63,937 nt of DNA from the NCBI GenBank assembly GCA_964612215.1, contig CAZTEW010000002.1, positions 1-63,937 on the forward strand, given 5' to 3'. This document shows, piece after piece, positions 2,557-48,036 of the stretch (its first letter is position 1; every line of letters begins with the position of its first letter). This DNA comes from an uncultured Gammaproteobacteria bacterium (GTDB lineage Bacteria > Patescibacteriota > Microgenomatia > CAZTEW01). Both the position numbers and the translations under genes were made by a program. The notes below the pieces were generated by a model, which was given only the letters and a program-made list of their open reading frames with translations, was not told the origin of the DNA and did not search any database.

Positions 2557-3546
2557 TTATTGACTTAAGTAGGGAGCAAAAAAACCGACAATAAAAATAA
2601 TGCCATAGACAAAATGAGTTAGAAAGATAGCCGGCCCGACCATCAGGGTCATATTAAGATCTTTTTCCCGCCAATAAACTACCAGGCTGGTCCAAACCAG
2701 CCCCAAAACATAAACACCAACCGCTGTCAGATAAAAAGGCCGCAAACAGCTAAAAAACATCGCTAAAATTGGCGCCACGAGAACGCCTAAAGCAAACAGG
2801 CTCGGCGCCAAATAGCCCAGACGTAATGAGGTTTGCGGTAAAATTCTGGCAAAGTGGCCCCGATGCAAAGCGTAACGGCTGATTTGCTCCAAGTGAGGGC
2901 CGAAAACTTCCCGACGATGATGGTAGACTAAAACTTTCGGGTCATAAATAATTCTCTTTTTCAGTTTTTGGGTGAGATAAAGACAAAGCTTCGTATCTTC
3001 ACCGGACCAGAAATGAGTATTAAAACCACCGGCCTGGAAAAAATATTTTCTTTTAATCAAAAGATTGGCCGTAGGAAAATCATCTACCTGCCGCTGCGGT
3101 CTAATCGCATAACGGTAAGTACCGGCGCCTTCGCTGCCAAAAGCCAAAGACCAAACATAACCGGCTACTTTTTGGCGAAAGTTATCTTGAGGCGGCGTGA
3201 TCATTGGTCCGCAGACGGCAACAATTTCCTTGCCTTCCTGGAAAATTTTCACCGCTTCCCTCAGCCAATTTTTGCTCGGATAAGAATCGTCATCAATAAA
3301 AGCGAGAATTTCACCCTGGGCTTTTTTGGCACCCAGATCGCGCTTATCTGCTGGTCCGGTTTGCGGCCAAGTGGCAATAATTTTCGCTCGCTGCAGTTTC
3401 TCTTTGGTTTTTTTGTCCGGCAGAATAATAATCTCAAAATTCTGATAGCTCTGTTTCAAAAGGGCAGGAATAGTTTCCTGACGCAGATAGTCATTAACCT
3501 CTTTCACCGGAATAATAATCGACACCAACGGCCCTTGTTTTTTCAC
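2557..3546 (-). CDS. GT2-family glycosyltransferase with C-terminal TM segments
   Basis: 329 aa. VSIIIPVKEVNDYL start, DDDSYP (DxD) motif, hydrophobic C-terminal third. GTG start. Confidence 0.8.
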   Translation of the reverse strand: MKKQGPLVSIIIPVKEVNDYLRQETIPALLKQSYQNFEIIILPDKKTKEKLQRAKIIATWPQTGPADKRDLGAKKAQGEILAFIDDDSYPSKNWLREAVKIFQEGKEIVAVCGPMITPPQDNFRQKVAGYVWSLAFGSEGAGTYRYAIRPQRQVDDFPTANLLIKRKYFFQAGGFNTHFWSGEDTKLCLYLTQKLKKRIIYDPKVLVYHHRREVFGPHLEQISRYALHRGHFARILPQTSLRLGYLAPSLFALGVLVAPILAMFFSCLRPFYLTAVGVYVLGLVWTSLVVYWREKDLNMTLMVGPAIFLTHFVYGIIFIVGFFAPYLSQ

Positions 3547-4616
3547 TAAGCTACCCAGTACCCTCTAGTAAAAAGAATGACGCAAACCATTAAAAGTAAA
3601 AAGCAAAAAGTAAAAAGCAAAAAGTGAATCTTCTTATTTTTCAGCAAGGCTAAATAAAGAAAGCAGGGAAAACAAGCTAAAACATAGCGCGGCAAAGAAG
3701 AGAAGGTTCCGGTTAGAGTCGGAATTAGATAAGCCAAGACGGCAAAAATCAGATAAGAATGTCTCAGGCCTTGACGGTAAGCCAGGATCAAAATTGCTAG
3801 AAAGCCCGAGGCAATTAATGCTTCCAAAACCACCACAAAATAGGTCAACGTCCATTTTTGAACAGTAACCAGCATTTTCAGATAGCGCCAAAAAACCTGG
3901 TACAAAAGAACGATTTTGCCACCACTTCTCTCGGCACCAAAAAACGGCTGAACATGGATAAAATAAAACGGGTCTTCTGCAGTCTGTTTTAAATACCACA
4001 TGTAAGCTAAAAGACCCAGCGGAATCAAAAGTAAAGCAGCGAAGCTTTTGCGCTTGGCTTCCTGCCGCTCGTAAAATAGAGCCGGCAAAAGGAAAATGCC
4101 TGTTAATCGCGTGGCGCTGGCCAGGCCGCCTAAAATCCCGGCTAGCCACCAGCGCTTCTTTCTGGCCGCGTAAAAAGACCCTAAAACCAAAGCCAAAAAA
4201 AGCGATTCAGTATAAACGCTGGCAAAATAAAAAGAGGTGGGAAAAATTAGTAAGTAAAAAATACTTCGCCAAGCTGTCTTTTCGCTAAAGTCAAGTTTGA
4301 CCAATAAATAAAGTAAAACTAAAGAAGCAAAAAACGCCAGATGAGAAATAAATAAACCAGAGAAAACATAATTCCGAGTGAAAAAAGTCAGCCAGCGAAT
4401 CAAAAGAGGATAAAAAGGAAAAAAAGCCTGCTCGTAGTGGAAATAGCCGTGCTCAGCAATGCTGAGGTAATGAACGCCGTCAAAGTTTGACCAGGAATTT
4501 GGGCCGAAAAAATCCGGCCGCTTCACCAGCAACCGTTCGGCTATCATGACCAGCAGCGACAACCCTGTTCGCCAAAAAACAAAAAGAATGAAAATTTTTC
4601 TAAACGACTTTTTCAT
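3546..4616 (-). CDS. PIG-V-like (GT76-type) membrane mannosyltransferase, GT-C
   Basis: 356 aa, polytopic. Motif SNFDGVHYLSIAEHGY...AFFPFYPLL resembles the WDGxxYxxIAxxGY signature of PIG-V-like proteins. Confidence 0.6.
   Translation of the reverse strand: MKKSFRKIFILFVFWRTGLSLLVMIAERLLVKRPDFFGPNSWSNFDGVHYLSIAEHGYFHYEQAFFPFYPLLIRWLTFFTRNYVFSGLFISHLAFFASLVLLYLLVKLDFSEKTAWRSIFYLLIFPTSFYFASVYTESLFLALVLGSFYAARKKRWWLAGILGGLASATRLTGIFLLPALFYERQEAKRKSFAALLLIPLGLLAYMWYLKQTAEDPFYFIHVQPFFGAERSGGKIVLLYQVFWRYLKMLVTVQKWTLTYFVVVLEALIASGFLAILILAYRQGLRHSYLIFAVLAYLIPTLTGTFSSLPRYVLACFPCFLYLALLKNKKIHFLLFTFCFLLLMVCVILFTRGYWVA
3595..3622. repeat. Period-7 tandem repeat (AGTAAAA/AGCAAAA) x4 inside a CDS
   Basis: agtaaaa agcaaaa agtaaaa agcaaaa. 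Encodes the TM segment HFLLFTFCFLLLM. Confidence 0.85.
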
Positions 4617-9894: not shown

Positions 9895-10996
9895 GGAAAA
9901 AAATAGATAAAAATTTAATTAAGATTAAATAAAGAAACGGCAGGATGGGCAAAAGATAGCGGATGTTGGCTTGGCCAAAAGAAATAAAAAGGCTGTAAAT
10001 CAAAAACCAAAAAAGAATTAGTTCTAGCTTTTCGTCTTTTATTTTTTTTAACCAGTAAATAAGAGCAAACACAAAAGCAAAAGTAAATAAGATGGGTAAG
10101 CCAAACCACCATTGAGGGTCGCTAATAATCGCCCGATCAGCCCACCAGGTTTGCCAGCGATTAAAATAAATCAAGGGCCAAATCGTCCCGATTGAGGTTA
10201 ATTTACCCTGATGAAACCAAAGAATCCATTTCTGAATGCTCAAAGCCTTTAAAGGATTTGGTTCTTCTAATAAAACTCTTAAATAACTCAAGCTTAAAAC
10301 GAGATAAGTCGATAACCCCACCCAAAAGACCAAAGAAAAAGTCTGTTGCCATCTTTTTTTGACGAGCAAAAAAAGCACCCAGCTAACAAAAATCACCAAA
10401 GCGGTAATAAAAAACATCACTGACGCAGTAATTCCTAAGCTTAAAGAAGCTAAAACAAGATCTTTTCTTTTTTTAGTTTTCAGCCATTGAATGAAGAAAA
10501 AGAAAGAAAAAAGAATAAAACAAAGCTGAAAGATACTAAGCACCGGTGGATAACGTAATTGATTTGAAAATAGTTTTTCAAAGCTAAAAAGCAAGGTCGT
10601 AACCAGAGCCAAATTAAAATTTTTTAAAATTAGCCTAGCGAGAAGAAAAAAAGCCAAAAGAGTTAAATAAAAAAAGAAATAGGTCGCTATTCTCGTGTTC
10701 TGGAAAAAAAGCACGGAGAGCGACAAAAAATATTTTCCCAAGGGCGGATGTTCTGGATTAACTAAAATGGGATTGCCGCCACGGAGATAATAACCAGCGC
10801 AAAAATTGTAAAGGGCATTGTCCGGCATCACCCCCTCAGGGTTTTCCACCATATATTGAGAACTGTAATAAGCTCTTGCCATTCTTTCATAGTCATAGTC
10901 CCTCTTAAATAACTCCTTCATTGGCGGCGTGACTTGAATTAGCCGACCAACAAGCAAAATAAGAAAAATTACTGTTAACCAATTCTTTTTAAGCAT
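9881..10996 (-). CDS. PMT/GT39-like membrane glycosyltransferase
   Basis: 371 aa, polytopic. The EHPPLGKYFLSL motif resembles the HPPLGK loop motif of protein O-mannosyltransferases. Confidence 0.6.
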   Translation of the reverse strand: MLKKNWLTVIFLILLVGRLIQVTPPMKELFKRDYDYERMARAYYSSQYMVENPEGVMPDNALYNFCAGYYLRGGNPILVNPEHPPLGKYFLSLSVLFFQNTRIATYFFFYLTLLAFFLLARLILKNFNLALVTTLLFSFEKLFSNQLRYPPVLSIFQLCFILFSFFFFIQWLKTKKRKDLVLASLSLGITASVMFFITALVIFVSWVLFLLVKKRWQQTFSLVFWVGLSTYLVLSLSYLRVLLEEPNPLKALSIQKWILWFHQGKLTSIGTIWPLIYFNRWQTWWADRAIISDPQWWFGLPILFTFAFVFALIYWLKKIKDEKLELILFWFLIYSLFISFGQANIRYLLPILPFLYLILIKFLSIFFREKV

Positions 10997-12138
10997 CTTT
11001 TTAATTGCCAGTAAGCTAGTGCCAACAACGGCGGCAGAAAGCTGACTATTTTTTTAATTAACGGTGTTGTCCCTGCCCAGCTGGCAGTATAAAGAAAAGG
11101 AGTTAAGCGGAACATCAAGCCAAACGAAAAAGCAAGAATAATCGCCACCAATAACTCGCTGGCTGGCAATAAAGCCGCAAAAGTCAGCGGCCAAATCAAG
11201 TACCAAGCGTAAATTTCTTCGCGCAAAGGCGACAGGAGGAAAACCAGCATCATACTTAAGGCTGACCAGCGCCAAACCACCGGCCAGTTAATTTTTCGGC
11301 GCTGACACTCCTGCCTGCCGGCAGGCAGGGTCTGCCAGGCCGTCCAGATAAACATCGGCAACAAAAATAAAGTGGCAAACTTAATCAAAATCGAAGAGAA
11401 CAAGCTGGCCACAGCTAAACAGAAACGCCTTTTTTTCAAAAGATAAAAAGCTGCCAAGGCCAAAGCCATCATCACGACATCATTATGACCGTCAACCAGA
11501 GTTTGCACCGTTACCAAAGGATTAAGACCAAAAAAAGCCAGCGTCCACAGCCGGTGACCGCTTAGTTGCCAAATCAGCCAACAAAGAAGAAAATAAAAAA
11601 CGATTACTAAAAGCTTAAAGGTGAAAATCGTTAAAAATAAATGGCCGGCGCCGAGAAAATGAGGCAAAGCCGTCAATAAAATCCAAAATGGCCCATAAAG
11701 AGCGGTTTTATTAGCGGCGTGCATAAATTTCAACATTGGTTCGTTGGAAATTTCGATGGGCATAATCAAATAAGGATTTTCGCGGTAAAGAAAACCCACC
11801 CGGGCGGTGGCCATATAATTGAAAATATCATAAGAAAAAGCCGGGTAGCTGAAAAAAAGAATGATTGTCGTTAGGAAAATCAGACGCCAGACCGCCTGAC
11901 TGGTCAGTTTTTTTTGCTTAACCAGCCGGAGAATCTGCCAATAAAGCAGGAAAGCAAAAACAATCAAAAAGCTGTAAATCGCGGTCATCAGCAACCGGCG
12001 AGAAAAAAGAAACGCCTCCAGAGCCGGCCAGTGTGGAAAAGGCGAACTGGAATTAACAAAGCCATATGAATAAACGACAAATGACAAATGACAAATGACA
12101 AATAAAAGATAAAAAATCTGTTTTCTAAATTTTCTCAC
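10975..12138 (-). CDS. GT87/DUF2029-like membrane glycosyltransferase (paralogue of 48037-49194)
   Basis: 387 aa. ALYGPFWILL and GHNDVVMMALALAAFYLLKK motifs are shared with the 48037 ORF. GTG start. Confidence 0.6.
   Translation of the reverse strand: MRKFRKQIFYLLFVICHLSFVVYSYGFVNSSSPFPHWPALEAFLFSRRLLMTAIYSFLIVFAFLLYWQILRLVKQKKLTSQAVWRLIFLTTIILFFSYPAFSYDIFNYMATARVGFLYRENPYLIMPIEISNEPMLKFMHAANKTALYGPFWILLTALPHFLGAGHLFLTIFTFKLLVIVFYFLLCWLIWQLSGHRLWTLAFFGLNPLVTVQTLVDGHNDVVMMALALAAFYLLKKRRFCLAVASLFSSILIKFATLFLLPMFIWTAWQTLPAGRQECQRRKINWPVVWRWSALSMMLVFLLSPLREEIYAWYLIWPLTFAALLPASELLVAIILAFSFGLMFRLTPFLYTASWAGTTPLIKKIVSFLPPLLALAYWQLKRCLKRIG
11310..11329. repeat. Perfect 20-nt GC-rich palindrome inside a CDS
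   Basis: CCTGCCTGCCGGCAGGCAGG. Encodes LPAGRQ in a loop. Confidence 0.85.
12076..12103. repeat. Perfect heptanucleotide tandem repeat (GACAAAT) x4 inside a CDS
   Basis: Four exact units. Encodes FVICHLSFV in the first TM helix of the GT87-like protein. Confidence 0.9.
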
Positions 12139-12652
12139 GAATGTTTTTAGCTTGGTCTAATAATTGATGAATTTTTAATTCCTCAGCGGCTTGCTTTTCC
12201 GGCTGCCAGAGAATTTCTTCAGGCAGTTCTTGGCGCAATTTATTCAACACCGCTTGATGCTTGCTAGCGGCAGCCTGAAAAATCTCTTTTTTCTGGCTGG
12301 CATCTATTTGCTGCCAATGAAAATTGGATTTTTCCAGGGCCCGCTCGGCCAGGAGATATTGCTCGTACTCAAAAAGAGTTTTTGCTTCCACTAAATATTT
12401 ATTTGCCATTTTCAGGTGATATTTAAACTGAGCCAGGTTGCCAAAAGACCAGTATTCCTGAAATTTTTCCCAAACCTGCCGGAGCCGATAAAGCTTATGT
12501 CCGGGCATGTAAGAAGGGTAAGGCAAAACATCGCCTGAAGCATTCGCTTCAGGAATGATCAATAACCAATAACCAATAACCAATAATAAAGACAAAAAAA
12601 TAATTTTAAATTTAAAATTATTCATTGCTTTCGGGCAACAACGCCAATGCAC
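12125..12652 (-). CDS. Secreted or anchored helical protein, DUF5667-like
   Basis: N-terminal hydrophobic helix followed by YMPGHKLYRLRQVWEKFQEYW...YLVEAKTLFE. The likely start is ATG at 12625, which forms an ATGA overlap with the methyltransferase stop. Confidence 0.55.
   Translation of the reverse strand: MHWRCCPKAMNNFKFKIIFLSLLLVIGYWLLIIPEANASGDVLPYPSYMPGHKLYRLRQVWEKFQEYWSFGNLAQFKYHLKMANKYLVEAKTLFEYEQYLLAERALEKSNFHWQQIDASQKKEIFQAAASKHQAVLNKLRQELPEEILWQPEKQAAEELKIHQLLDQAKNIREKI
12554..12588. repeat. Period-7 tandem repeat (AATAACC) x3 plus 2 imperfect units inside a CDS
   Basis: aatgatc aataacc aataacc aataacc aataata. Encodes the signal/TM segment LLVIGYWLLII. Confidence 0.85.
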
Positions 12653-13332: not shown

Positions 13333-14164
13333 TTTTCAATTCCCAGAATTTAAGATAAGCACTCGCCTCAAGCAAGCCGGAAAACAAAGCAAAAATAAAG
13401 CCTAAAAAGCCGTCTAAAAATCCTTTATTGACAAAATAAACCTTGAGAAAGGTCTGCATCGGGACGATCAGTAAATAGCGAAAGCTGTTAAAAAAATTCG
13501 GAGTCAGAGAAGAACGCCAGTGCTCTTGGGCGCGGAGCGAAGAATAAGTATTAAACTTTTTAAGATATTCAGAAAAAGTCGGAAAAGGATAATGGAGTAA
13601 ATGACCCTTTAAATAACCGGTTTTGCCTTTTCCGCCAGAGGCGGATCCGCCTTTGGCGGAGACGACCATCTGTTCATGAACTGATTTGCAGGGCAAATAT
13701 GCTTGGCCGCGTTTTAAGAGGCGGATAACCGCATCCGGATACTGGCCGCCTTTTTTCAACCACCGGCCCAGAAAAAAATTCTTTCGGGGCAGATAATAGG
13801 CCGCTGGCGCGTCCTTTTGCCATGTCCGGCCGGCAATTTCCCTAATTTCTTGAGCCAGTTGCTGATCAACCACTTCATCCGCATCCAACTGGAGAATCCA
13901 ATCGCCTTTGGCCTGATCAATCGCTATTTGTTTATTGATGTGAAAAATGGGTTTATTGGTCGTCACGATAACCTTGGCGCCGTATTTTTTAGCCACTTTG
14001 ACGGTCTGGTCAATTGATTGGCCATCAACCACAATAATCTCATCCGCCAGCTGGCGGACCGCCTCCAAACACGCACCGAGGTTTTTTTCCTCATTAAAGG
14101 TTGCGAGAACAACGCTAATTTTAGATTTCATTTCTTTTGGCGCTTCACGAAAACTTCTTTGCAA
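13316..14164 (-). CDS. GT2-family glycosyltransferase (paralogue of 38591 and 40903)
   Basis: ISVVLATFNEEKNL, IIVVDGQSIDQT and LDADE motifs. The likely start is ATG at 14131, which forms an ATGA overlap with the small upstream ORF. Confidence 0.8.
   Translation of the reverse strand: MQRSFREAPKEMKSKISVVLATFNEEKNLGACLEAVRQLADEIIVVDGQSIDQTVKVAKKYGAKVIVTTNKPIFHINKQIAIDQAKGDWILQLDADEVVDQQLAQEIREIAGRTWQKDAPAAYYLPRKNFFLGRWLKKGGQYPDAVIRLLKRGQAYLPCKSVHEQMVVSAKGGSASGGKGKTGYLKGHLLHYPFPTFSEYLKKFNTYSSLRAQEHWRSSLTPNFFNSFRYLLIVPMQTFLKVYFVNKGFLDGFLGFIFALFSGLLEASAYLKFWELKNAKKK
13632..13660. repeat. Type-3 palindromic micro-insertion in a GT2 gene
   Basis: CCGCCAGAGGCGGATCCGCCTTTGGCGGA. Encodes SAKGGSASGG, which is absent from the two GT2 paralogues at the same position. 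Confidence 0.8.
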
Positions 14165-14385: not shown

Positions 14386-16011
14386 TTATAATCTAAATAG
14401 TGCCAATAAGCTTATTAAGCTTCCCAGGGAAATTAAATCGGCAAACAGACGCAATCTAGTCTCTCGAAAAACAACTTCAATTTGATGTTCGCCCGCCGAT
14501 GAGGCGGGTATCCAGAAAGTCATAATTCCCCGGTAATTCGGGTCTTGAAATTCAATCTCTACTGGTTGGTTATCAACTAAGACTTTCCAGCCGGGAAAAT
14601 AAAGAGTGTTTTCCGCGATTCTCGTTTTTTCGCCTGCTTTAACCTGGTAAAGGTGGCGGTTGGTCAACCGTTTAATTTCTTTTATTTCGGCCTGGCCTTC
14701 AATCACCTCGATCGGTACCCCCGCAAACTGTTCCATAAAACGGATTGACCAGCGAGGAGAACTTTCACCGGTATCATTGGTCGTGCCCTCTGTAAACTGA
14801 GTATAAAAAGCTTCGTCCCGGTAAAGAAAGCCTTCTGGCCGATAAAAGTTTTTATTAAACCATAAAGCCAAACCCAGGAAAATCATTAAAACCACTGTCT
14901 GTTTTTTTTGGGGCAAAGAGGCAATAACAGCCCCAGCGAAAATCCCTGGCGGCAAAACCGCCAAAGAGAGAAAACGCCAGGCAAACTGGAATTTGCGGAG
15001 TAAACCGACTCGATCATAAACAAAACCAGAAGCTGGCAGAATCAGAAAGATCGCCAGCCAAAAACAGACAAACATCAGTGATAAAAACAGCCATTCTTTT
15101 TGTTTGTTTTTAAAAAACCGCCAAATCAAAAAGGGAGCGATGATTACCATCAGCCACTGTAAAATTCCCAGCTGAACGCTGAACTGACCGGTAATGCCGT
15201 AATTCCAATCAGACCAGATTAACCGAGAAAATGGTTCAAAGCCGCCGAAAAATCCTTTCATAACAATATCTCTTAAAGTGTACTTGGCTTCAAAAAAGGC
15301 CGGCACCCAGAAAAAAACCGACAGAGAAAAACCCAGAATCACGAATAATGAATTATGAATCATGAATTTAAATTTTTGAGATCGCGGCAATGTTAAAAAT
15401 AAAAAGGCGATATAGCTAAAAATCACTACCAGGAACATTAAGCTCAAAGCATTATGAGATAAAATCAAACCGGCTAAAGACAGGCTGGCAACGGCTAAAT
15501 AGCGGTATTTAAACTGCCGGCTTAATTTCAAAAGAAAGTAACAGATTAATGGCGGCCAGAGAAAAGCCGTGCATTCGCCGATGGCGCCCCGAACATAAAG
15601 GTCAACAAAACGATAAGGAGCAAACAAATAAATCAAGCCGGCGGCCCCGCCAGCTGGCGGGCCCCAAATTTCCTTAATCCAGAAATACATAAAAAGACCC
15701 GAGAGAATAAAACCCAGAACAAAAACCAGTTTGGTGCTGAAGACAAAAGAAAAACCGAGAAAGTGAAAAAATGACCCTAAATAACTGGAAAGCGGATAAA
15801 AAAACATTAAAACCGGGTGACCGTAACGCCGGTTTAAGTTGCCGGCCCAGCGGGGCACCAGATTCCCCTCGGACAACGACTGGTAAAAGCTGGCAATCCT
15901 GACCACATGATCTCTACCGTCATGAGTTAACGGCAACCCCGGCCGGAAAAAATCCAAGAGCGGTATCAAAGAAACAAGAATCAATAAAAAGAAAAGGTTT
16001 TTATTCCTCAT
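14386..16011 (-). CDS. Family A polytopic membrane protein, putative GT-C glycosyltransferase
   Basis: 541 aa. THDGRDHVVRI, FFWVPAF and LYFPGWKVLV motifs, plus a C-terminal TM anchor. Confidence 0.7.
   Translation of the reverse strand: MRNKNLFFLLILVSLIPLLDFFRPGLPLTHDGRDHVVRIASFYQSLSEGNLVPRWAGNLNRRYGHPVLMFFYPLSSYLGSFFHFLGFSFVFSTKLVFVLGFILSGLFMYFWIKEIWGPPAGGAAGLIYLFAPYRFVDLYVRGAIGECTAFLWPPLICYFLLKLSRQFKYRYLAVASLSLAGLILSHNALSLMFLVVIFSYIAFLFLTLPRSQKFKFMIHNSLFVILGFSLSVFFWVPAFFEAKYTLRDIVMKGFFGGFEPFSRLIWSDWNYGITGQFSVQLGILQWLMVIIAPFLIWRFFKNKQKEWLFLSLMFVCFWLAIFLILPASGFVYDRVGLLRKFQFAWRFLSLAVLPPGIFAGAVIASLPQKKQTVVLMIFLGLALWFNKNFYRPEGFLYRDEAFYTQFTEGTTNDTGESSPRWSIRFMEQFAGVPIEVIEGQAEIKEIKRLTNRHLYQVKAGEKTRIAENTLYFPGWKVLVDNQPVEIEFQDPNYRGIMTFWIPASSAGEHQIEVVFRETRLRLFADLISLGSLISLLALFRL
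14490..14510. repeat. Type-4 GC hairpin (CCCGCC-GATGA-GGCGGG) in frame
   Basis: Encodes PASSAGEH. Paralogues lacking it read P(A/D)GEH. Confidence 0.7.
15344..15371. repeat. Imperfect period-7 repeat (AATAATG/AATTATG/AATCATG/AATTTAA) inside a CDS
   Basis: Encodes KFKFMIHNSLF just upstream of the FFWVPAF motif. Confidence 0.7.
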
Positions 16012-17660
16012 TAAATTTCTCCGACGACAATCGCTGGTTCACCATCTAGAAAATAAACTGTTTTTTGCGGCTGAAAACTTTCCGGAAAGTCCTGGGGTCG
16101 GCCGACGTAGAGAATGGCCTGATTTTTTTCTTCTGTTTCCCATTTTATCGGCCGGAAAACATACTTGCCGAAACCCTGATTTGATCCGGTTTTTTGATAA
16201 GTCAGCGGGTCGAATTGCAAATAAAACAAGAAGAAGATATAAGACTGATCCAGGTGCGGCTGGTTAGAAACAATGATTTTTTGATAATTATCTGTAATTG
16301 CCTGAATCTCGGCCACGGCCGGCTGGTAACCGTATTGCCAGGCTTGGGAATTAAAATAATTCTGCTGGACAAAATACTGGTTGAGAAAATAAACAAAATT
16401 AAAAATAAAAAATAAAAAATAAAAAACTAAAACGCCAAACTTAAAGCTTTTTTTCTTGGTTTGCAGCCACTGCCAGAATTCAATTAAACCCAAGCCAATA
16501 AAAACATAAATCATCGGCAGGAAGCGTAAGGTTCGGACCGCGTGAGGCGAACCACTGCTAAAAGCCGCTGGCACTGACGCCAAAAGAAACCAAGAAAAAA
16601 CCGTTGCTTTGACCCGACGGCTGAATTTCCCAAAAACCAACTGATAAACTCCCCAAAGTAAAAACAAAATTTCCCAAAGATAAAGCAGGCCCATGCCTGG
16701 CGCGTGATGGCGGATCTCATCGCCGGTCAGAAACAACCAGTTAAGATCGAAGTGAGCAACATAACCATTAATAAAACCCGTTAGGTAGGCAATCCTGCGA
16801 TTATCAAAAATCAAACCAAGATAATTTTTTTGCTGATAATCACGCAGTAAGCGATTGGCGCTTTTGGCTAAAAAGGGTGTTTGATCGGCCGCCAAACTCG
16901 TATCTCTAGCTCTCATGAAAATTTCCGGACTGGCAAAAATCAAATAAATGAAGGGCAACACCACCAGCAGGCCGACTATCAGACTGGCCAGCAAATAGCG
17001 CCACGGTATTTTCAGGATCTTTCGCCGCCAAATGAAAAGCATGGCCAAAACCAACAAAGGCGTGAAAACTTTTTCCGCCTGATAAACATAAATGTTCAGG
17101 CCAGCAAAGAAAGAAGCTAAAGCCAAAAACTTTGGCTGGCGCAGGCCTTTTAAAAATAACCAGACCCAAAGAATGCTAAAAAAAACGCCGATGTTAGATT
17201 CAAAAGCCACCCGAGAGAATTGCAAATGCCAAGGACTGATCGCCAATAGAAAGGCTGTTGTTAAAGGCAGTACTAACCACCTCCGAGGTGGCGCTTGACG
17301 ACTCCTCGGAGGTGAAATCTCTGAAAATATCTCTTTCACCAAAAAATAAGTCAACAAAATCGCCAATGTCCCCAGGATGGCGGCCGGCAAACGAACCGTA
17401 AAAACATTAAGCCCAAAAAGCTTTATAAAGGGGATTATTAAATACCCATAAAGAGCCGGCTTGTAGTCACCAAAAGAACGCAGGAAAAGCGGCCAAGACT
17501 GACCATGCTCGTCACGGCCGGTTCGCAATAGCGAAAAAGCATTATAACCCAAAGAGGCTTCGTCCCAATCAGGCGAGGCCGGTACCTGACCTAGCTGCCA
17601 AAAACGGAGCGTCGCTCCTAGAATCAAAATCAAAACTAACCCCAACCACCTTTTTTTCAT
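16011..17660 (-). CDS. Family C PMT/ArnT-like (GT39/GT83, PMT_2-type) membrane glycosyltransferase
   Basis: 549 aa. LRFWQLGQVPASPDWDEASLGYNAFSLLRTGRDEHG first loop with a DE motif, AISPWH motif, polytopic. Confidence 0.8.
   Translation of the reverse strand: MKKRWLGLVLILILGATLRFWQLGQVPASPDWDEASLGYNAFSLLRTGRDEHGQSWPLFLRSFGDYKPALYGYLIIPFIKLFGLNVFTVRLPAAILGTLAILLTYFLVKEIFSEISPPRSRQAPPRRWLVLPLTTAFLLAISPWHLQFSRVAFESNIGVFFSILWVWLFLKGLRQPKFLALASFFAGLNIYVYQAEKVFTPLLVLAMLFIWRRKILKIPWRYLLASLIVGLLVVLPFIYLIFASPEIFMRARDTSLAADQTPFLAKSANRLLRDYQQKNYLGLIFDNRRIAYLTGFINGYVAHFDLNWLFLTGDEIRHHAPGMGLLYLWEILFLLWGVYQLVFGKFSRRVKATVFSWFLLASVPAAFSSGSPHAVRTLRFLPMIYVFIGLGLIEFWQWLQTKKKSFKFGVLVFYFLFFIFNFVYFLNQYFVQQNYFNSQAWQYGYQPAVAEIQAITDNYQKIIVSNQPHLDQSYIFFLFYLQFDPLTYQKTGSNQGFGKYVFRPIKWETEEKNQAILYVGRPQDFPESFQPQKTVYFLDGEPAIVVGEI
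16394..16428. repeat. Period-7 A-rich repeat (AAAAATA x3 plus imperfect flanking units) inside a CDS
   Basis: caaaatt aaaaata aaaaata aaaaata aaaaact. Encodes the TM helix FYFLFFIFNFVYFL. Confidence 0.7.
17277..17314. repeat. Type-1 palindromic element (38-nt form) in frame
   Basis: CCACCTCCGAGGTGGCGCTTGACGACTCCTCGGAGGTG, identical to 20665-20702. Translated as SPPRSRQAPPRRW. Confidence 0.85.
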
Positions 17661-19339
17661 ATTTGAAAAGCCTTTAATATCGGCTCGCCATTTAAAAGTT
17701 TAAATTCCCTTTTAATATCGGCTCCAGAAGGAACATTTTCAGGTAAATCCACATAAAGCATGCCTTTTTCCCAACCAGTGTCTTTGTCAAAATGATATTT
17801 GCCAAAACTTTTCACTTTAACAAACCCCATCACCTCTCTCTCAACTTCAGCTAGCCGGCGAAATTCCTCTGGTGACCGCTTTTGATGAAAAAGTAAATAA
17901 ATATAGGGGCGGCCAAGGGCATTAGTCATCCAAATCCGATCATGTTGACCCTCAACCTCTTGAAGATAAGCCGCAACCTCACGATAACCATATTGCCATT
18001 CCCGAGAATATTCTCTGGGGTAATGAACAATATAACTATGAAGAAAATAAGTAAAATTTAAAATTACAAATGACAAATTAAAAATTAAAAATATAAATTT
18101 AAAATCTCTTTTTATCTGTCTCTTCTCCAGCCATTCTAAAAAACCAATCACGCCTAAAGCGCTGATCATTTGCCAGGTCGGCAAAGTGTTTTCAATCCGC
18201 AGGCTATGCGGCGTTTCCCGGGCCGTCGCCGCCGGCAAAATACCAACCAACAACCAGAAGGGAATTAACCACCAATAACCTGGTTTTCGTTTAAACAAAA
18301 GCAAAATACCAGCGATCAAAAAAGGCAGCTCCCAGAGATAAAGCTGGCCGACGTCCTGAATGGAGAATTTCGGATTGCCGTCGCCCCGAATAAAAAGAAA
18401 AGCCGGATTAAAATGATCAAAATAATGGCGAAGAAATTCGCGAGTATAGCCCCAGCGCCGGTTATGGATAATCTTTGACCACCAAACCAATTCGCCAGCT
18501 GGCGAATCATTCTCCATTTCTTGATTAGCCTGAATAACCACGCTTGAATCAGAAAAGATATTCACTTCGTGGAAACGCAGTTTGGCTTGGGGGGTGAGTA
18601 AAAAAGGAAGTATCGGTAATAAAAAAACAATCCCGGTTAAAGCTGCCAACACCGCCTGTTTCTTTTTCTGCCAAAGTTCTTGGCGGAAACCGACAACCAG
18701 TCCTAAAACCAGCAGCGGCGCTATTATCCGGGCCGTATTAAAAGTGTAAAGAGAGAGAGTAAAACTGATTACCGACGCCAGCAGCCAGCGGCTTGACTGG
18801 CGCATGGCTTTCAAAAAACCAAGTACGCCGGCCACTAAAAAGAAACTGGCTACATTGGCTTCAAAAGCAGCCCGGGAAAGCATGATATGCCACGGACTAA
18901 TTGCCAGCAGCAAAGCAGCAACGGCGCCAAGTAGAGATAGTCTCTCCTCGGAGGTGGCGAAGCAACGACTTCGACTCCTGCAAGGTGGGACGACATGACG
19001 GCAAAGAATCTCTTTTGCCAGCCAGTAGGTCAGCCAAACTGTTAAAACGCCAGCGAAAGCCGAGGCAAACCGGGTCGCGAACGCATTTAATCCGAAAAGC
19101 TTCACCGGTAAAATCGTCAGGTAGGCATAGACTGGCGGCTTAAAATCGCCGAAAGATTCCAAATAATTGAGAGGTAAAAATCTGCCAAACTCATCCCGAC
19201 CATCTAATCCCAGGCTGTAAGCATTGTAACCCCAGGCGGCTTCATCCCAACTTAGAGCCGGCGGATTACTGCCTAACCAACAAAAGCGCAAAGCGCTGGC
19301 CAAAACTAGAATAAAAAATAAAGCGCGGGATTTTTTCAT
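17657..19339 (-). CDS. Family C PMT/ArnT-like membrane glycosyltransferase
   Basis: 560 aa. LRFCWLGSNPPALSWDEAAWGYNAYSLGLDGRDEFG and AISPWH motifs. ATGA overlaps at both ends. Confidence 0.8.
   Translation of the reverse strand: MKKSRALFFILVLASALRFCWLGSNPPALSWDEAAWGYNAYSLGLDGRDEFGRFLPLNYLESFGDFKPPVYAYLTILPVKLFGLNAFATRFASAFAGVLTVWLTYWLAKEILCRHVVPPCRSRSRCFATSEERLSLLGAVAALLLAISPWHIMLSRAAFEANVASFFLVAGVLGFLKAMRQSSRWLLASVISFTLSLYTFNTARIIAPLLVLGLVVGFRQELWQKKKQAVLAALTGIVFLLPILPFLLTPQAKLRFHEVNIFSDSSVVIQANQEMENDSPAGELVWWSKIIHNRRWGYTREFLRHYFDHFNPAFLFIRGDGNPKFSIQDVGQLYLWELPFLIAGILLLFKRKPGYWWLIPFWLLVGILPAATARETPHSLRIENTLPTWQMISALGVIGFLEWLEKRQIKRDFKFIFLIFNLSFVILNFTYFLHSYIVHYPREYSREWQYGYREVAAYLQEVEGQHDRIWMTNALGRPYIYLLFHQKRSPEEFRRLAEVEREVMGFVKVKSFGKYHFDKDTGWEKGMLYVDLPENVPSGADIKREFKLLNGEPILKAFQI
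18061..18102. repeat. Imperfect period-7 repeat (about 6 units) inside a CDS
   Basis: aaattac aaatgac aaattaa aaattaa aaatata aatttaa. Encodes FIFLIFNLSFVILNF. Confidence 0.7.
18944..18988. repeat. Type-1 palindromic element (degenerate second arm) in frame
   Basis: CTCCTCGGAGGTGG-CGAAGcaacgaCTTCG-aCTCCTgCaAGGTGG. Translated as VPPCRSRSRCFATSEE. Confidence 0.7.
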
Positions 19340-21045
19340 GGTTGATATTCTAAAATTATAAAGGCCAGCGAATTATCCGCCCGCCTGATTTCCGCCAATT
19401 GCCGGCTGCCAGGGACTGCCCCGCCGCACAAACCGCTGTTGACATACAAAACTCCTTTTTCACCATTAACATCAGAACGACCATTCTCATCTGTGACCAA
19501 CCTCATAGGACACTCCTCTTGTAAAAACTGATACTTCCCAAAACTGATTCGATCAAAATCAGGAATTGCCGGATTTTTGGTTTCCTGCTGGAAACCCGCT
19601 GGGTCATACTGACTAAAAAACAAAAAATAGATTGTCGGGGCTGATTCGCGATCAGTGATGACTGCTTTTCGATAATCCGGCAGCAGCTGATTGACTTTTT
19701 CAACTAAAGCCTGATAGCCATCCTGACGATCCCAGGGTTGATAAAGAGGCGCGTGGATATAATATTGATGAAGATAGGCGCTAAAATTATAAAAACCAAA
19801 AAGAATAAAAACTATCACAAAAGGCAAAAAAATCCTTTTCCTTTTTAACCAGGTGACCATTTCCAGCCAACCAAAACCAGCCAACCAACAAAAAACAGGC
19901 AAAGCAATTAAAGTCCGCTGGAGATTAGGGACATCATTAAAAGTTAAGGCACTGCCAATCATCGATAAGAAAAGCCAAGCAAAAAGAAGCGTCTTGAGAT
20001 CAACATTTTTCTTAAATATCGTCCAAAGACCAATCAAAAGAAGCGGCAACTCAAAAAGATAGAACAAACCAGTCAAGGGGACTCGATAGCGATTAGGAAA
20101 ACCCTGGTCTGTAAATAAGAAATCAAAAGAAAAGTGAGCAAAGTAATTTCTTAAAAACTGGTTCAAATAACCCATCACTTTGTTATGAAATAACCGGGTA
20201 ACAATGATCGGCAAGGAAGAAACACCATCTTCTCGAATATGGCGTTCAATTAAAAGTTGGGTTTCTTGACCGCCTAAAAGACTAATTGACCGTACCCAAA
20301 GAGAAAGATTCTTGGAAAACATAAACCAAGCTGAAGGCAAAACAATCATCAGGAAGAATAAAAGCCAAACAAAAAACTTTGTTTTTCTCTCTGTCTTAAT
20401 CTTACTAAAAGATAAATAAATCAAAACTGGTAGAAAAAGAGGTAGAAAAGACCGAGCCGCTAAATAAATATATAAGTTAATTCCTATGCAAACAAAAGCA
20501 AGAAAGAGCCATAACCGACTTTTCTTTTTCAAGCCAGAAAAGTAGAGACAGACACCAAGAACAAGAAAAAAAAGAATCAAAACACTCTCAGTTGCGGTCC
20601 GAGAAAGATTAATGTGCCAAGGTGAAATCGCTAGTAGAAAACTAGAAACTAGAGGAAGCGTTAACCACCTCCGAGGTGGCGCTTGACGACTCCTCGGAGG
20701 TGAATTCTCTGGAAATATCTCTCTTGTCAAATAATAAATCGCAACCACTGTCAAAGACCCTAAAAGAGCCGCAGGAAAACGAACCGCAAATTGATTTAAG
20801 CCAAAGATTTTAATCGGAAAAATCGTGAAGTAGCTATAACCTCCTGGGCTATAAACAATAGATTGGAAATTTAAGGGTAAAAAATTAGCGTTAATATCCC
20901 GGCCGGTTTTGAGGATTGAAAATCCATTGTAACCCAAAAAGGCCTCGTCGCGATGAAAACCCAACGGCACCTGTCCCAGCTGCCAAAACCGCAGCCCCAG
21001 CGCTAAAAGCAGAATTAAAGCTAAGGCCGTGATCTCTTTTTTCAC
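19336..21045 (-). CDS. Family C PMT/ArnT-like membrane glycosyltransferase
   Basis: 569 aa. LRFWQLGQVPLGFHRDEAFLGYNGFSILKTGRDINAN and AISPWH motifs. Confidence 0.8.
   Translation of the reverse strand: MKKEITALALILLLALGLRFWQLGQVPLGFHRDEAFLGYNGFSILKTGRDINANFLPLNFQSIVYSPGGYSYFTIFPIKIFGLNQFAVRFPAALLGSLTVVAIYYLTREIFPENSPPRSRQAPPRRWLTLPLVSSFLLAISPWHINLSRTATESVLILFFLVLGVCLYFSGLKKKSRLWLFLAFVCIGINLYIYLAARSFLPLFLPVLIYLSFSKIKTERKTKFFVWLLFFLMIVLPSAWFMFSKNLSLWVRSISLLGGQETQLLIERHIREDGVSSLPIIVTRLFHNKVMGYLNQFLRNYFAHFSFDFLFTDQGFPNRYRVPLTGLFYLFELPLLLIGLWTIFKKNVDLKTLLFAWLFLSMIGSALTFNDVPNLQRTLIALPVFCWLAGFGWLEMVTWLKRKRIFLPFVIVFILFGFYNFSAYLHQYYIHAPLYQPWDRQDGYQALVEKVNQLLPDYRKAVITDRESAPTIYFLFFSQYDPAGFQQETKNPAIPDFDRISFGKYQFLQEECPMRLVTDENGRSDVNGEKGVLYVNSGLCGGAVPGSRQLAEIRRADNSLAFIILEYQP
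20665..20702. repeat. Type-1 palindromic element (38-nt form) in frame
   Basis: A 38/38 match to 17277-17314, while the flanking coding sequence of the two paralogues is visibly diverged. Confidence 0.85.
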
Positions 21046-30592: not shown

Positions 30593-32257
30593 CTATTTTA
30601 ACATGAAAGACTTCAGGCCGCGGCCAACAAGGAATAATAAAGAGAGACAGCTGATGGCTTCGCCTAAGATTCTATCCCAAGTTCTGGTAAATTTAATCAT
30701 CACCTCATGTTCGCCCTCTTCCAATGGGAATTGAATCAGCCCTGATATTAAAGTAATATCAAATTTTCTTTTTTGACCATTCCAGCCAGAGGCTGGTCCG
30801 CCTTTGGTGGAGACCCAGAGCCGCCAACCAGGATAATAAACCGTATTCAGTCGCACCTGACTATCCTCGACTGCTTTGACGCGATATTTTTGCCAATGAG
30901 AATGAACTTCTTCGCTTAAAACCTCAACTTCACCAGCCATGGCTTCTAAAACTGCCTGTCTCGGACCTTCATGTTTACCGCTAACCGACCAGCGAGGCCG
31001 GTATTCATTATAAGAATTGCTGGTTGCTGGTTTATTTAAAAAGTAGTCGTCAGTCAGATCTTGATAAAGATTGACGCGCAGATGGTTGCGGTTGCCATAA
31101 AAAGTTAAAGCCAATAAAAAAATGGTCAGCGGCAAGAAAAGAGTCTTTTTTTTGAGAGCTGTTAAAACCCCGCCGGTGATTAAAGAACTAAAAAGAGTGG
31201 TCAAGGCCAAGTAGCGAAAAGGAAAGTCAATCTTTAGAAAAAAGCTGATCGCTTGCCAATAAGGATTGGCAACAGGCAGCATCAAAAAAACTGCGCTGAA
31301 GAAAAAAACTATCAATAAGCCGAGCAACCGCTGGCGTTGTCGCCACCAAACCAAAACTGCTAAAGCTACCGCCAACCACTGAGCAATGCCAACCTGAAAA
31401 GACATGGCATCGAGTTCGGTCCCGGGATGGGATAAACCATAGCCCCAAGATGAATAGATTAATTGTTTTAGGCTAGGAAAGTGATCGCGATAAAAAACCA
31501 TCATTTCTTGGGAAAACATGGTCTCTTTTTTTTCTACTAGGGCTGGCAGCCAGTAAAAGGCGCTGAGGGCTAGCGCCAGAATTATGAATTTAGAATTATG
31601 AATTATGAATGCTTTTTTATCTTTCCTCTGGTAAAGAAAAAAGATAATCAAAACCAGTAAAAAAGGCAAAAATAAAAAGGCCAGCATCATGTGAGAAAGA
31701 AAAAGACAGGCTAAAAAGATGCCGCCGAAAATAGGCTTTTTTGCCAACACCGCCCAAATCAAAAGCGGCAAGAAGAGAAAACAAACCGCCTCGCCTAAGC
31801 TGGCTCTGACCAAAATGGTGGAAAAGCGCCACGGCGTCCAAAGATAAAAAACAGCGCCGGTAAAAGCTGCCAATCGGTTTGACCAAAGTTTTTTTTGCGT
31901 CAAATACATCGCCAGGCCGGACAAAACATAAGTCAGAATAAAAACCGCCTTAATTGAATCAATAAACGAAAGTCCTATTAAATGAAAAAAAGTGCCTAAA
32001 TAAAAAGGGAAGCGGTAGATGAAAATAAAAAGAGGGTAACCATAGCCATCAAAAGCCGGTGGGCCGGCCCAGCGCACCGGCAGCTGACCATCCTTTAATC
32101 CTTTGACAAAATGAATTAGTCTGATAACTTGATGTTCGCCGTCGTGGCTGGTATAAAAGCCCGGCTGAAAAAGGGCTTTCACACCAAAAACACCAATGAG
32201 AAGCAATAAAATTAAAGCCAGCCAATCAATCTTTTTCATGAAAAAACCAATGTTCAA
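30593..32257 (-). CDS. Family A polytopic membrane protein, putative GT-C glycosyltransferase
   Basis: 554 aa. SHDGEHQVIRL, AFYWLPAL and VYYPGWRLWV motifs. Alternative ATG at 32239. Confidence 0.7.
   Translation of the reverse strand: MNIGFFMKKIDWLALILLLLIGVFGVKALFQPGFYTSHDGEHQVIRLIHFVKGLKDGQLPVRWAGPPAFDGYGYPLFIFIYRFPFYLGTFFHLIGLSFIDSIKAVFILTYVLSGLAMYLTQKKLWSNRLAAFTGAVFYLWTPWRFSTILVRASLGEAVCFLFLPLLIWAVLAKKPIFGGIFLACLFLSHMMLAFLFLPFLLVLIIFFLYQRKDKKAFIIHNSKFIILALALSAFYWLPALVEKKETMFSQEMMVFYRDHFPSLKQLIYSSWGYGLSHPGTELDAMSFQVGIAQWLAVALAVLVWWRQRQRLLGLLIVFFFSAVFLMLPVANPYWQAISFFLKIDFPFRYLALTTLFSSLITGGVLTALKKKTLFLPLTIFLLALTFYGNRNHLRVNLYQDLTDDYFLNKPATSNSYNEYRPRWSVSGKHEGPRQAVLEAMAGEVEVLSEEVHSHWQKYRVKAVEDSQVRLNTVYYPGWRLWVSTKGGPASGWNGQKRKFDITLISGLIQFPLEEGEHEVMIKFTRTWDRILGEAISCLSLLFLVGRGLKSFMLK
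30786..30810. repeat. Type-3 palindromic micro-insertion (KGGPASGW cassette)
   Basis: CCAGAGGCTGGTCCGCCTTTGGTGG, identical to 5782-5806. Encodes STKGGPASGW. Confidence 0.8.
31577..31610. repeat. Period-7 repeat block containing the 28-nt string CAGAATTATGAATTTAGAATTATGAATT
   Basis: aattatg aatttag aattatg aattatg. Encodes FIIHNSKFIIL before the YWLPAL motif. Confidence 0.85.
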
Positions 32258-35274: not shown

Positions 35275-36341
35275 TTAATCAACTCCTCAAATTGCTGACA
35301 AAAAACCTTTTTACTGAACTTTTTGCTTTTTTGCTGACCCCGTCGCGCCAGCTTGCTGCGCAATCCTTCATTAATCATCAATTCCCGGGTGTATTTCAGC
35401 AGCTCTTTTTTCTTTTGCCAAAGAAAGCCGTCAAGCGCCTGATCAACAATCTCTTTCTGGCCGCCTTTAGCGCAAACCACGGGCACGCAGCCGGCAGCCA
35501 TGGCTTCCACGGTTCCGATGCCAAAGTGCTCGACTTTCTCCGGACTTTTCTCTTCATTAACGCCAAAGCCGGCGGCGTGCCAGTAAATTTTGGCTTCTCC
35601 GTAAAGATTCTGGAGGGTACTAAAATCAACGTTGGCCAAAATTTCTACGGACAAACCTTGAGCTGATTTTTTTAATTTTTCTAGCTTCCGGACGGCTCTC
35701 GCTTGAACCCCACCCGCCAGAATTAGACGCCAACCTCTTCGCTCTGCCTCTTCCATTTCTTTAAAAGCGCTCAAAAGGATGTTTTGCTTCTTAGCATGCA
35801 GAGGCGAATCAAATCTGGCTACCGAAAGAATAATATTTTTTTTCGGTTTGGCTGAGAATTCTTCTATGGCTACTGGCGGATAAATAACTTGGCTTTGAAT
35901 ATTGAACTCGCGGTCAATAAACTTTTTGGTAAAGAAAGAGTTGCAAACCACGGCGTTAACCTGACGTAGCTTCAGTTGATTCAGTAAAGAGCGACCGTGA
36001 ACACCAGTAAACGGCACCTGAAAATGGATAATCTTCTTTTGGCTGAAAAGAAAGGGCAGACTACCGTCAGAAAGATAGAAAATCAAATCATAAACGCGGG
36101 TGTTGTTTCTTCTTTGCCGAAAACCAGCCGGCTGAGAGAAAAGACGGTAGAGTCGGGGATTATACTGCAGGCCTTGAAAACGCAGATTAAATCGGGCGCT
36201 GGCTCTTTCCAAAGTTTCTTTTTCCGGCCAGAAAATTTCCACCTGATGGCCTTGAGACAACCAATATTCGGCTAAGGTCAAAGTATAGCGCTCGCCGCCG
36301 CCTAAAGTGTCTAAATAAGGATCAAAAAAACCAATTCTCAT
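35271..36341 (-). CDS. GT4-family (GT-B) glycosyltransferase
   Basis: 356 aa. EHFGIGTVEAMAAGCVPVV motif. Confidence 0.8.
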   Translation of the reverse strand: MRIGFFDPYLDTLGGGERYTLTLAEYWLSQGHQVEIFWPEKETLERASARFNLRFQGLQYNPRLYRLFSQPAGFRQRRNNTRVYDLIFYLSDGSLPFLFSQKKIIHFQVPFTGVHGRSLLNQLKLRQVNAVVCNSFFTKKFIDREFNIQSQVIYPPVAIEEFSAKPKKNIILSVARFDSPLHAKKQNILLSAFKEMEEAERRGWRLILAGGVQARAVRKLEKLKKSAQGLSVEILANVDFSTLQNLYGEAKIYWHAAGFGVNEEKSPEKVEHFGIGTVEAMAAGCVPVVCAKGGQKEIVDQALDGFLWQKKKELLKYTRELMINEGLRSKLARRGQQKSKKFSKKVFCQQFEELIK

Positions 36342-48013: not shown

Positions 48014-48036
48014 ATAAAGAATAGTATACCCAAGTT

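Follow-up and report, generated by a model that had tools for sequence, protein, structure and literature searches.

Non-triplet microsatellites in coding sequence are normally purged or are interpreted as phase-variation switches. Known contingency loci have many more repeat units or long homopolymers, are polymorphic in unit number between and within strains, and are often 5'-proximal. Cyanobacterial short tandemly repeated repetitive (STRR) sequences are heptamer repeats. Borg elements contain perfect tandem repeats in open reading frames (ORFs), with units divisible by three that create disordered regions, and Rickettsia palindromic elements (RPEs) of 100–150 bp are inserted in frame in genes. 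Here we analyse heptanucleotide (period-7) arrays on contig CAZTEW010000002.1 of a groundwater organism, the entire 63,937 nt of which are termed the window, and in related loci. A whole bacterial lineage tolerates such arrays in dozens of genes; their sites have long been kept, their units have changed in concert and their length has remained constant.

The heptanucleotide class is the most abundant in genomes rich in long simple sequence repeats (LSSRs, with 5–11-nt units), and a polymerase contact length of ~7 nt has been proposed as the cause of this predominance (Mrazek, Guo & Shah 2007, PNAS, as summarised in PMC4679880). The arrays described here resemble that class, whose genomes are phylogenetically scattered and have non-triplet simple sequence repeats (SSRs) with a proposed slippage/polymerase origin and, in the summary given there, no tie to pathogenicity (PMC4679880). 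Here, too, SSRs exceed compositional expectation, and period 7 is dominant and patchy among related lineages. The arrays differ from LSSRs in that ~85% lie within ORFs, where translation rotates through three frames, and in being short (4–5 units), positionally conserved and subject to concerted evolution at constant length. TAACTGA heptamer direct repeats are found in marine Beggiatoaceae, cyanobacteria and Bacteroidetes (MacGregor 2015, PMC4679880). They are likewise tandem heptanucleotide arrays of 2–6 copies that are lineage-patchy and often lie just upstream of start codons, and in stop-free ORF orientation they encode the heptapeptide repeat LSVISYQ (PMC4679880). In the TAACTGA and STRR systems each genome uses a single fixed unit, mainly between genes, whereas dozens of units occur here, mostly intragenic (70 of 80 arrays), with unit turnover at fixed sites.

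SSR contingency loci, such as the phase-variable glycosyltransferase genes of Haemophilus, Neisseria and Campylobacter (PMC2651432, PMC11868660 and PMC3315296), share with these arrays non-triplet tandem repeats in surface-glycan genes, in which gain or loss of one unit shifts the frame. All 14 window arrays are non-triplet repeats in ORFs, and spacer arrays occur 5' of start codons in relatives. Neither coding arrays that vary in unit number among close strains nor sets of ON and OFF alleles were found (one candidate OFF allele among ~70 arrays); unit number is stable here and unit sequence changes. Like Borg repeats and RPEs, the arrays are fast-evolving nucleotide-level repeats that are tolerated in genes and provide new peptide segments at permissive sites, although neither of those systems has period 7 or rotating frames. 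We found no description in the literature of such arrays in the candidate phyla radiation (CPR) or Patescibacteria.

Period-7 arrays in the window and its relatives

Tracts were detected with Tandem Repeats Finder (TRF) and an exact self-match scan by lag. The window has 10 exact self-match runs of at least 10 nt at lag 7, nine at lag 14 and five at lag 21; each of the remaining lags from 1 to 20 has 0–2. Within coding sequence, the 10 observed lag-7 runs compare with means of 0.15 in global codon shuffles and of 0.23 and 0.39 in local codon shuffles (12- and 7-codon blocks, respectively), and the maximum reached in the codon shuffles (n = 300) was two. Enrichment relative to shuffled coding sequence is thus far above chance (10 vs 0.15–0.39), and the period-7 signal is real. 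An earlier reading of the letters alone (the sequence-only reading) had claimed at least a dozen ORF-internal tracts of this period; TRF recovers 14 of the 14 listed, all within minus-strand ORFs. The peptides quoted in that reading are correct and derive from rotating-frame reading of the 7-nt units; a block placed at 12554 has its true start at 12560. The arrays are the following.

3592–3625, minus strand: (ACTTTTT/GCTTTTT) array of 4.7 units (period 14 perfect x2.4), encoding HFLLFTFCFLLL, residues 331–342 of GT87-like protein 3546–4616; Kyte-Doolittle mean 2.91.
12072–12103, minus strand: (ATTTGTC)x4.6, perfect over 12076–12103 (plus strand (GACAAAT)x4), the tract originally flagged, encoding LFVICHLSFVVY, residues 12–23, in the N-terminal membrane helix of GT87-like protein 10975–12138.
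12560–12586, minus strand: (TTATTGG)x3.9, perfect, encoding LLVIGYWLL, residues 23–31, in the signal anchor of DUF5667 protein 12125–12652.
15343–15367, minus strand: ATTCATN x3.6 (AATTCAT family), encoding KFMIHNSLF, residues 215–223 of PTPS_related protein 14386–16011.
16391–16432, minus strand: (TTTTTTA)-type array of ~5.3 units, encoding VLVFYFLFFIFNFVY, residues 410–424, in the last membrane helix before the C-terminal domain of PMT_2 protein 16011–17660.
18053–18105, minus strand: degenerate array of 7.7 units (78% match; period 21 x2.5), encoding residues 412–429 of PMT/PMT_2 protein 17657–19339, at a family site shared with 16391.
31578–31610, minus strand: AATTCAT/AATTCTA array of 4.7 units, encoding AFIIHNSKFIIL, residues 216–227 of protein 30593–32257; holds a 26-mer in common with 37238 and 44258.
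34559–34591, minus strand: (ACTTTTT)x4.7, perfect, encoding KLFTFYFLLFTL, residues 228–239 of YfhO protein 33088–35274.
37238–37265, minus strand: (AAATTCATAATTCT)x2, a period-14 double unit, encoding KIHNSKFIIL, residues 456–465 of YfhO protein 36322–38631.
44258–44291, minus strand: AATTCAT/AATTCTA array of 4.9 units, encoding QFIIHNSKFIIL, residues 205–216 of PTPS_related/YfhO-like protein 43279–44904.
46928–46963, minus strand: (TTTTGCA)-type array of 5.1 units (79% match), encoding LVFAFCILIFAF, residues 453–464 of PMT_2 protein 46511–48319.
48987–49002, minus strand: (CTTTTTA)x2.3, short, encoding LFTFYC, residues 65–70 of GT87 protein 48037–49194; same unit family as at 3592 and 34559.
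56948–56980, minus strand: AATTCAT/ATTCGTT array of 4.7 units (84% match), encoding QFIIRYSLFIIL, residues 6–17, in the first membrane helix of PMT_2 protein 55452–56996.
60569–60602, minus strand: (TAAATTT/TCAATTT) array of 4.9 units (88% match), encoding TKFSILNFKFSI, residues 58–69 of soluble NAD-dependent epimerase 59837–60775; no membrane helix.

The window holds at least five unit families, and dozens of different units occur across the lineage. Arrays at 3592–3625, 31578–31610, 37238–37265 and 44258–44291 are built of period-14 double units, and those at 15343, 16391, 18053, 46928, 48987, 56948 and 60569 are more degenerate. At N-terminal sites orthologous to the 12072 array, other units occur in four related loci (L054, L073, L116 and L120; related loci are cited by L numbers), and sites orthologous to the 12560 array have TCTGCTA and TTATTGT units in L003 and L009. 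The 16391 array falls at site 3 of the PMT_2-like family alignment.

Window genes lie nearly all on one strand and function in glycan synthesis. They encode ~25 polytopic GT-C-type proteins (YfhO, PMT_2, GT87 and PTPS_related), glycosyltransferase family 2 and 4 (GT2 and GT4) enzymes, a Wzx-type flippase and sugar-nucleotide enzymes. A transmembrane (TM)-like segment was defined as a 19-residue hydropathy window with a Kyte-Doolittle mean of at least 1.6; such a segment is overlapped by 12 of the 14 window arrays, typically right after a lysine/arginine (K/R) cluster, and the other two are borderline (44258, 1.31) or lie in the soluble epimerase (60569, 0.80). In an AlphaFold model of YfhO protein 36322–38631 (predicted local distance difference test score 89, predicted template modelling score 0.91), the residues encoded by the 37238 array (456–465) are predicted to form the turn between helices 427–453 and 458–483 and the first third of the latter, which is the final membrane helix preceding a C-terminal beta-rich domain. 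Non-redundant arrays number 80 in total, of which 70 are in open frames of at least 80 residues and 10 are intergenic or at gene ends. Among the 70 coding arrays, 13 are clearly TM-like and 30 are hydrophilic, the latter in loops of soluble GT2 and GT4 enzymes (e.g., RQITDNRQQITDK and KVKSQKSKVK). The claim that the tracts encode TM helices therefore stands for the window, where they mostly encode hydrophobic helix starts of GT-C-type proteins, and not for relatives, where they are not restricted to membrane helices. On the best-supported reading, the arrays encode membrane helices as a by-product of units that are T-rich and free of stops. Protein-level selection for a heptad was considered and rejected, since no peptide repeats internally within 7 residues and what is identical is the DNA, over all three frames. 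Gain or loss of a unit does frameshift the gene, as had been proposed: a simulated change of 7 or 14 nt truncates 14 of 14 proteins.

The arrays are a lineage-wide trait of some Gottesmanbacteria-like (Microgenomates, CPR) groundwater genomes and are not specific to the window, whose closest relatives are Candidatus Gottesmanbacteria and other Microgenomates metagenome-assembled genomes. The comparison set consists of 120 related loci (1.44 Mb) from glycan-cluster neighbourhoods, for which lag-7 runs of at least 10 nt were counted by group.

Closest genomes, 330 kb: 26 lag-7 runs; other non-multiple lags 0–4.
Closest metagenome loci, 443 kb: 48 lag-7 runs; other non-multiple lags at most 8.
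Beckwithbacteria-type loci, 175 kb: one lag-7 run; no period-7 excess.
Outgroup, mostly Chloroflexi, 143 kb: two lag-7 runs; periods 3, 9 and 18 dominate.

TRF agrees with these counts across locus groups. The window and locus groups A and D have 7 as their modal period; in groups B, C and E, period 7 is neither modal nor clearly enriched. Array density is patchy at equal GC content, with 2–4.5 per 10 kb in the window and ~20 other loci and none in L011–L017 and others; a syntenic relative (L121–L124, 72–87% protein identity) has only short or degenerate period-7 tracts. Glycan-cluster genes have 69 arrays in 665 kb vs four in 121 kb of other genes, which is ~3 times denser, where all of the sequence comes from glycan-cluster neighbourhoods. 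Arrays were found again in independent assemblies from several studies.

Array sites, unit turnover and constant length

Copy number clusters at 4–5.4 (typically 28–38 nt) with a maximum of 7.3, and array positions have no 5' bias. On the coding strand, units are T-rich (T 0.42, A 0.32). A universal unit motif was rejected: TCA is 2-fold enriched (21 vs 9.8 expected) yet is present in only 21 of 70 units (30%). Where one of the rotating frames of a unit contains a stop, as in the AATTCAT family, only short or alternating arrays are possible, which helps to explain the strand bias and limited length. Alignments place the arrays in a few gappy, variable segments per family. The 49 aligned PMT_2-like proteins have three such segments; the 36 GT4 proteins also have three, one of which is the inter-domain linker; in GT87-like and DUF5667 proteins the segment is the N-terminal helix, and in GT2 enzymes it is one loop. 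Spacer arrays in relatives include several that lie between an epimerase gene and its neighbour or directly upstream of a start codon.

Arrays usually have the same number of residues as the ordinary homologue sequence in family alignments, including those of PMT_2-like, GT4 and epimerase proteins. At DNA level there are zero gaps both between array and non-array sequence (L065 vs L069 at 13247) and between one array and a different one. Insertion as a general rule was rejected, and arrays mostly replace sequence of equal length. Insertion does hold at 37238 (+18 nt) and 44258 (+15 nt) in the window compared with a 72–77% identical relative, whose orthologues have no array. In L003, adjacent (AAGCACC-type) x7.3 and (TTTGGAA) x4.6 arrays at 2892–2974 give the PMT_2-like variable loop its longest insert (EAPSIKHQIPSKHQAPKFWNLEFENWNL), so loop lengthening by arrays is also possible. 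The second suggestion of the sequence-only reading, that microsatellites are used to create or replace TM helices, is closer to this evidence in that low-constraint segments are replaced with length mostly kept, but the arrays look tolerated rather than used.

Orthologous arrays retain site, phase and length; the unit differs, with identical substitutions in each copy. This is illustrated by the following pairs of loci.

L049 and L045: AATATCA x4.4 and AAAGTCA x4.3; flanks 86% identical, no gaps.
L003 and L008: ACAGATA and ACAAATA; a variant third unit is kept in both.
L005 and L058: TCACTTA x4.9 and (TCTCTTC CCTCTGC) x2.4; no gaps.
L079 and L061: CTTTATA and TTATTCA; no gaps.
L069 and L065: AAAAGTG and AAAAATG.
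L116 and L120: TATTACT and TGCTGGT.

Such periodic differences are impossible by independent point mutation; therefore, the arrays are homogenised. The 34559 array, which is perfect in the window, is represented in the 72–77% relative by a degenerate TTATTCT-like array of equal length, and the 46928 array is degenerate and of equal length in both the window and an 87% orthologue.

Array sequence is also shared between sites. Exact copies of the 26-mer AGAATTATGAATTTAGAATTATGAAT lie at three window positions and no others (31578, 37238 and 44258), where shuffles expect none. Two of the genes that contain it are paralogues with just 33% identity, and the third site (37238) is non-homologous, in a YfhO protein with unrelated flanks. 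No match to this 26-mer was found in the 120 related loci or in viral contigs, and a phage or mobile origin for it was rejected on this basis. Single units recur likewise: the window has ACTTTTT at three sites, L003 has TGTTTAT at three, and both helix arrays of an L116 gene have the same unit. An exact 10-mer is common to 27 of 218 within-genome array pairs; permutations (n = 5000), which do not control for base composition, average 5.6 such pairs and never exceed 19.

Arrays of the AATTCAT family are old and widely distributed. Related arrays are present at the equivalent of the 37238 site in YfhO orthologues that are 46–48% identical (L128, L129) and absent from those that are 53–72% identical, and the family occurs in GT4 linkers of L065 and L077 and in YfhO, PTPS-like and PMT_2 proteins of different genomes. 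AATTCAT-type k-mers reach depths of 500–5800x in four metagenomes, vs ~5x for the window genome, with dozens of unrelated flanks. Array k-mers at 31579–31610, 44258–44291, 46928–46958, 16386–16426 and 12560–12600 are 10–1000 times deeper than the rest of the window (e.g., 5862x in run X2). With unrelated flanks in dozens of contigs, deep array k-mers of this kind indicate that the unit families are common in other, more abundant community genomes.

Array length is unchanged between L127 and the window (99.9% identical), in the X4 strain at 46928, between L068 and L071 (92%) and between L065 and L077 (94%), as well as across samples in L070–72 and L121–124 (four samples). The sole unit-number difference in close comparisons is one unit (7 nt) between L065 and L069 (~91% identical), in a spacer array that abuts an epimerase start codon; L077 has no array there. 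Tract lengths in closely related strains, which should differ if unit number were switching, are therefore stable with one spacer exception. In the X4 strain, unalignable sequence stands in place of stretches around 31578 and 37238, with equal length at 31578, which shows turnover of sequence and not of unit number. Run X4 seemed to show a 27-nt expansion at 46928, which was rejected because it belongs to an unrelated contig; the orthologous X4 contig has equal length. Logan contigs from the six runs that hold the window have 2–8x depth and break at or near arrays of ~31 nt or more, and absence of variants among them is uninformative.

Reading frames are preserved in 69 of ~70 coding arrays. 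A frameshift scan of all period 7, 14 and 21 arrays gave one convincing case, in L116 (Ga0180438 contig), where a GT87-like gene at 1983–2186 is split into 84- and 339-residue ORFs exactly at (TTATTAC)x4 (2159–2186). One extra unit would restore the frame, and the L120 orthologue is intact with 5.0 units (TGCTGCT). The L116 gene is a candidate OFF allele, the only one found. Hits in L088 and L036 were rejected as a gene junction and a GC-rich overlap, respectively.

Mutational turnover and its alternatives

We consider it probable that the arrays are produced by a lineage-specific mutational process with a 7-nt register, involving slippage and conversion and filtered by selection; they are not demonstrated on/off switches. 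Neighbouring heptamers would be homogenised by a process that acts on DNA in this register: slipped-strand mispairing during replication or repair would lead mostly to out-of-register conversion and less often to net insertion or deletion, and array sequence could be copied between sites by short-patch template switching or ectopic conversion. Selection would purge outcomes that break the frame, add a stop or disturb a constrained residue, so that arrays would persist only at sites that tolerate reading in any of the three frames. Such all-frame tolerance would favour units that are T-rich and stop-free on the coding strand, which encode hydrophobic peptides and would pile up at poorly constrained helix starts of GT-C paralogues. 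Frameshift alleles would then be expected as rare and mostly deleterious by-products, and nothing in the data shows them acting as a regulated switch. The conversion mechanism in this account is inferred.

Several points weigh against this explanation. No mechanism has been demonstrated for the 7-nt register or for the presence of arrays in some genomes and their absence from close relatives, and length-conserving homogenisation within ORFs by one-unit steps is difficult without frameshifted intermediates. A variant third unit is common to L003 and L008 although their other units differ at one position, which is a misfit with pure slippage homogenisation. Recurrence of the AATTCAT family at the YfhO site in 46–48% but not in 53–72% identical orthologues, together with k-mers that are 100–1000 times deeper than the genome, could signify mobility or function rather than neutral turnover. 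The ~3-fold higher density in glycan clusters could reflect selection or merely weaker constraint, and the within-genome sharing test was not controlled for genome-specific base composition. A broader proposal, which we regard as speculative and rather doubtful, is that a templated copy-and-homogenise process with a 7-nt register in some CPR lineages rewrites unconstrained gene stretches and moves arrays; within the expanded GT-C repertoire, the arrays would be a source of new helix and loop segments and perhaps of micro-homology for paralogue recombination or of low-frequency frameshift switches that diversify the surface.

The arrays could instead be true contingency loci, as the sequence-only reading proposed, in which unit-number slippage switches GT-C glycosyltransferases and some promoters or 5' regions and thereby diversifies the surface glycans of an episymbiotic CPR bacterium. 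Non-triplet units occur in ~12 paralogous surface-glycan genes, whose products are always truncated by a change of 7 or 14 nt, and massive paralogy would render single genes dispensable. The split L116 gene with its intact L120 orthologue, the one-unit difference immediately 5' of an epimerase start codon in loci that are ~91% identical, and the higher density in glycan-cluster genes can be read in the same way, and perfect arrays imply recent homogenisation and hence ongoing slippage. However, the arrays have only 4–5 units, nearly all coding arrays are in frame, their length is constant in close strain pairs and independent samples, they lack a 5' bias, similar arrays are present in soluble enzymes, in spacers and at the 3' ends of genes, and it is unit sequence and not unit number that evolves. 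The strain comparisons speak against a contingency role, which is unproven and which we judge unlikely. Movement of the arrays, above all those of the AATTCAT family, as short cassettes copied to new sites within and between genomes by a dedicated or element-encoded mechanism would account for the identical 26-mer at three window sites, one of them non-homologous, and for the extra 18 and 15 nt at 37238 and 44258 relative to the 72–77% orthologues, as well as for the many unrelated flanks and high k-mer depth of the AATTCAT family in four metagenomes and its occurrence in GT4, YfhO, PTPS-like and PMT_2 proteins of different genomes. Against such cassettes, the arrays have no terminal repeats, target duplications or associated gene, their edges are ragged, orthologous arrays usually replace sequence base for base, the 26-mer is unmatched in viral contigs and unit diversity is very large, which together make this idea quite improbable.

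The chances are slim that the arrays are functional cis-elements, with U-rich heptamer arrays on mRNA (or DNA) each binding a cold-shock/OB-fold protein per heptamer and so tuning translation speed or mRNA structure at helix starts. Bacillus subtilis CspB does bind heptamer direct repeats with one protein per unit and a preference for T-rich sequence (PMC4679880), many window arrays are U-rich and lie behind K/R clusters at helix starts, and the ~28–38 nt length is maintained across orthologues. The arrays share no common unit or motif, given the modest enrichment of TCA, many are A-rich and located in soluble-protein loops or spacers, and close relatives lack arrays at equivalent sites, all of which argues against such a role. 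An artefact can be dismissed with near certainty, whether of chance, of composition or codon usage in A/T-rich hydrophobic coding sequence, or of assembly. The arrays do lie in low-complexity T-rich segments, but A/T-rich hydrophobic codon context is ruled out as their cause because local codon shuffles yield 0.2–0.4 lag-7 runs vs 10 observed; moreover, the window has no excess at lags other than 7 and its multiples, relatives that are equally AT-rich have no arrays, and several studies have recovered the arrays in independent assemblies.

If mutational turnover of this kind is confirmed genome-wide, the arrays would represent a clear natural case of a mutational process that shapes protein segments such as membrane-helix starts and linkers. 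They would also provide a genomic signature usable for these CPR clades and a caution against calling contingency loci from repeat structure alone. Whether unit number varies within populations is a question that can be tested in public groundwater metagenomes.

Palindromic inserts and the glycan cluster

A second class of in-frame repeats consists of GC-rich mini-palindromes (e.g., TCCGCCAAAGGCGGATCCGCCTCTGGCGGA and CACCTCCGAGG...CCACCTCGGAGGTGG), which translate as SAKGGSASGG, PPRSRQAPPRRW and similar peptides. In the window, SAKGG-type copies are at 13604–13684, 45060–45125 and 53975–54040, and PPRSRQAPPRR / GVPPRR-type copies are at 17265–17330, 18935–19000, 20638–20718, 41488–41553 and 45855–45920. 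One sequence of this class, CCGCCNNNGGCGG, occurs four times vs 0.06 expected. The copy at 13628–13660 has a k-mer depth of 1390–1740x in runs X4 and X5, compared with ~5x for the genome, and its flanks are unrelated. Mini-palindromes look like an abundant REP- or RPE-like element (repetitive extragenic palindrome or RPE) that is tolerated within genes. GC-rich palindromic inserts are found at variable sites that bear arrays in other genomes, which supports the view that these sites merely tolerate foreign or repetitive sequence.

Single-strand glycan genes occupy ~60 kb of the window (2557–63880) with hardly an interruption and include ~25 GT-C paralogues, unusually many for the small genome of a CPR bacterium. 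At the edge of this cluster, an IS200-like Y1 transposase gene (PF01797; 1807–2484) adjoins a TPR protein, and no link with the arrays was seen. In the syntenic relative L121/L122, a helix-turn-helix (HTH)/Gp49 (HigB/HigA-like) pair is inserted in the cluster; the window does not have this pair. A perfect 15-nt tandem duplication (CAAGCCATATAAAGA x2) lies at 47991–48020, where ORFs 46511–48319 and 48037–49194 overlap, and the X4 strain (~94% identical) has 17 nt of gaps there. The 282-nt overlap of these ORFs suggests that the annotated TTG start of 46511–48319 is too far upstream.

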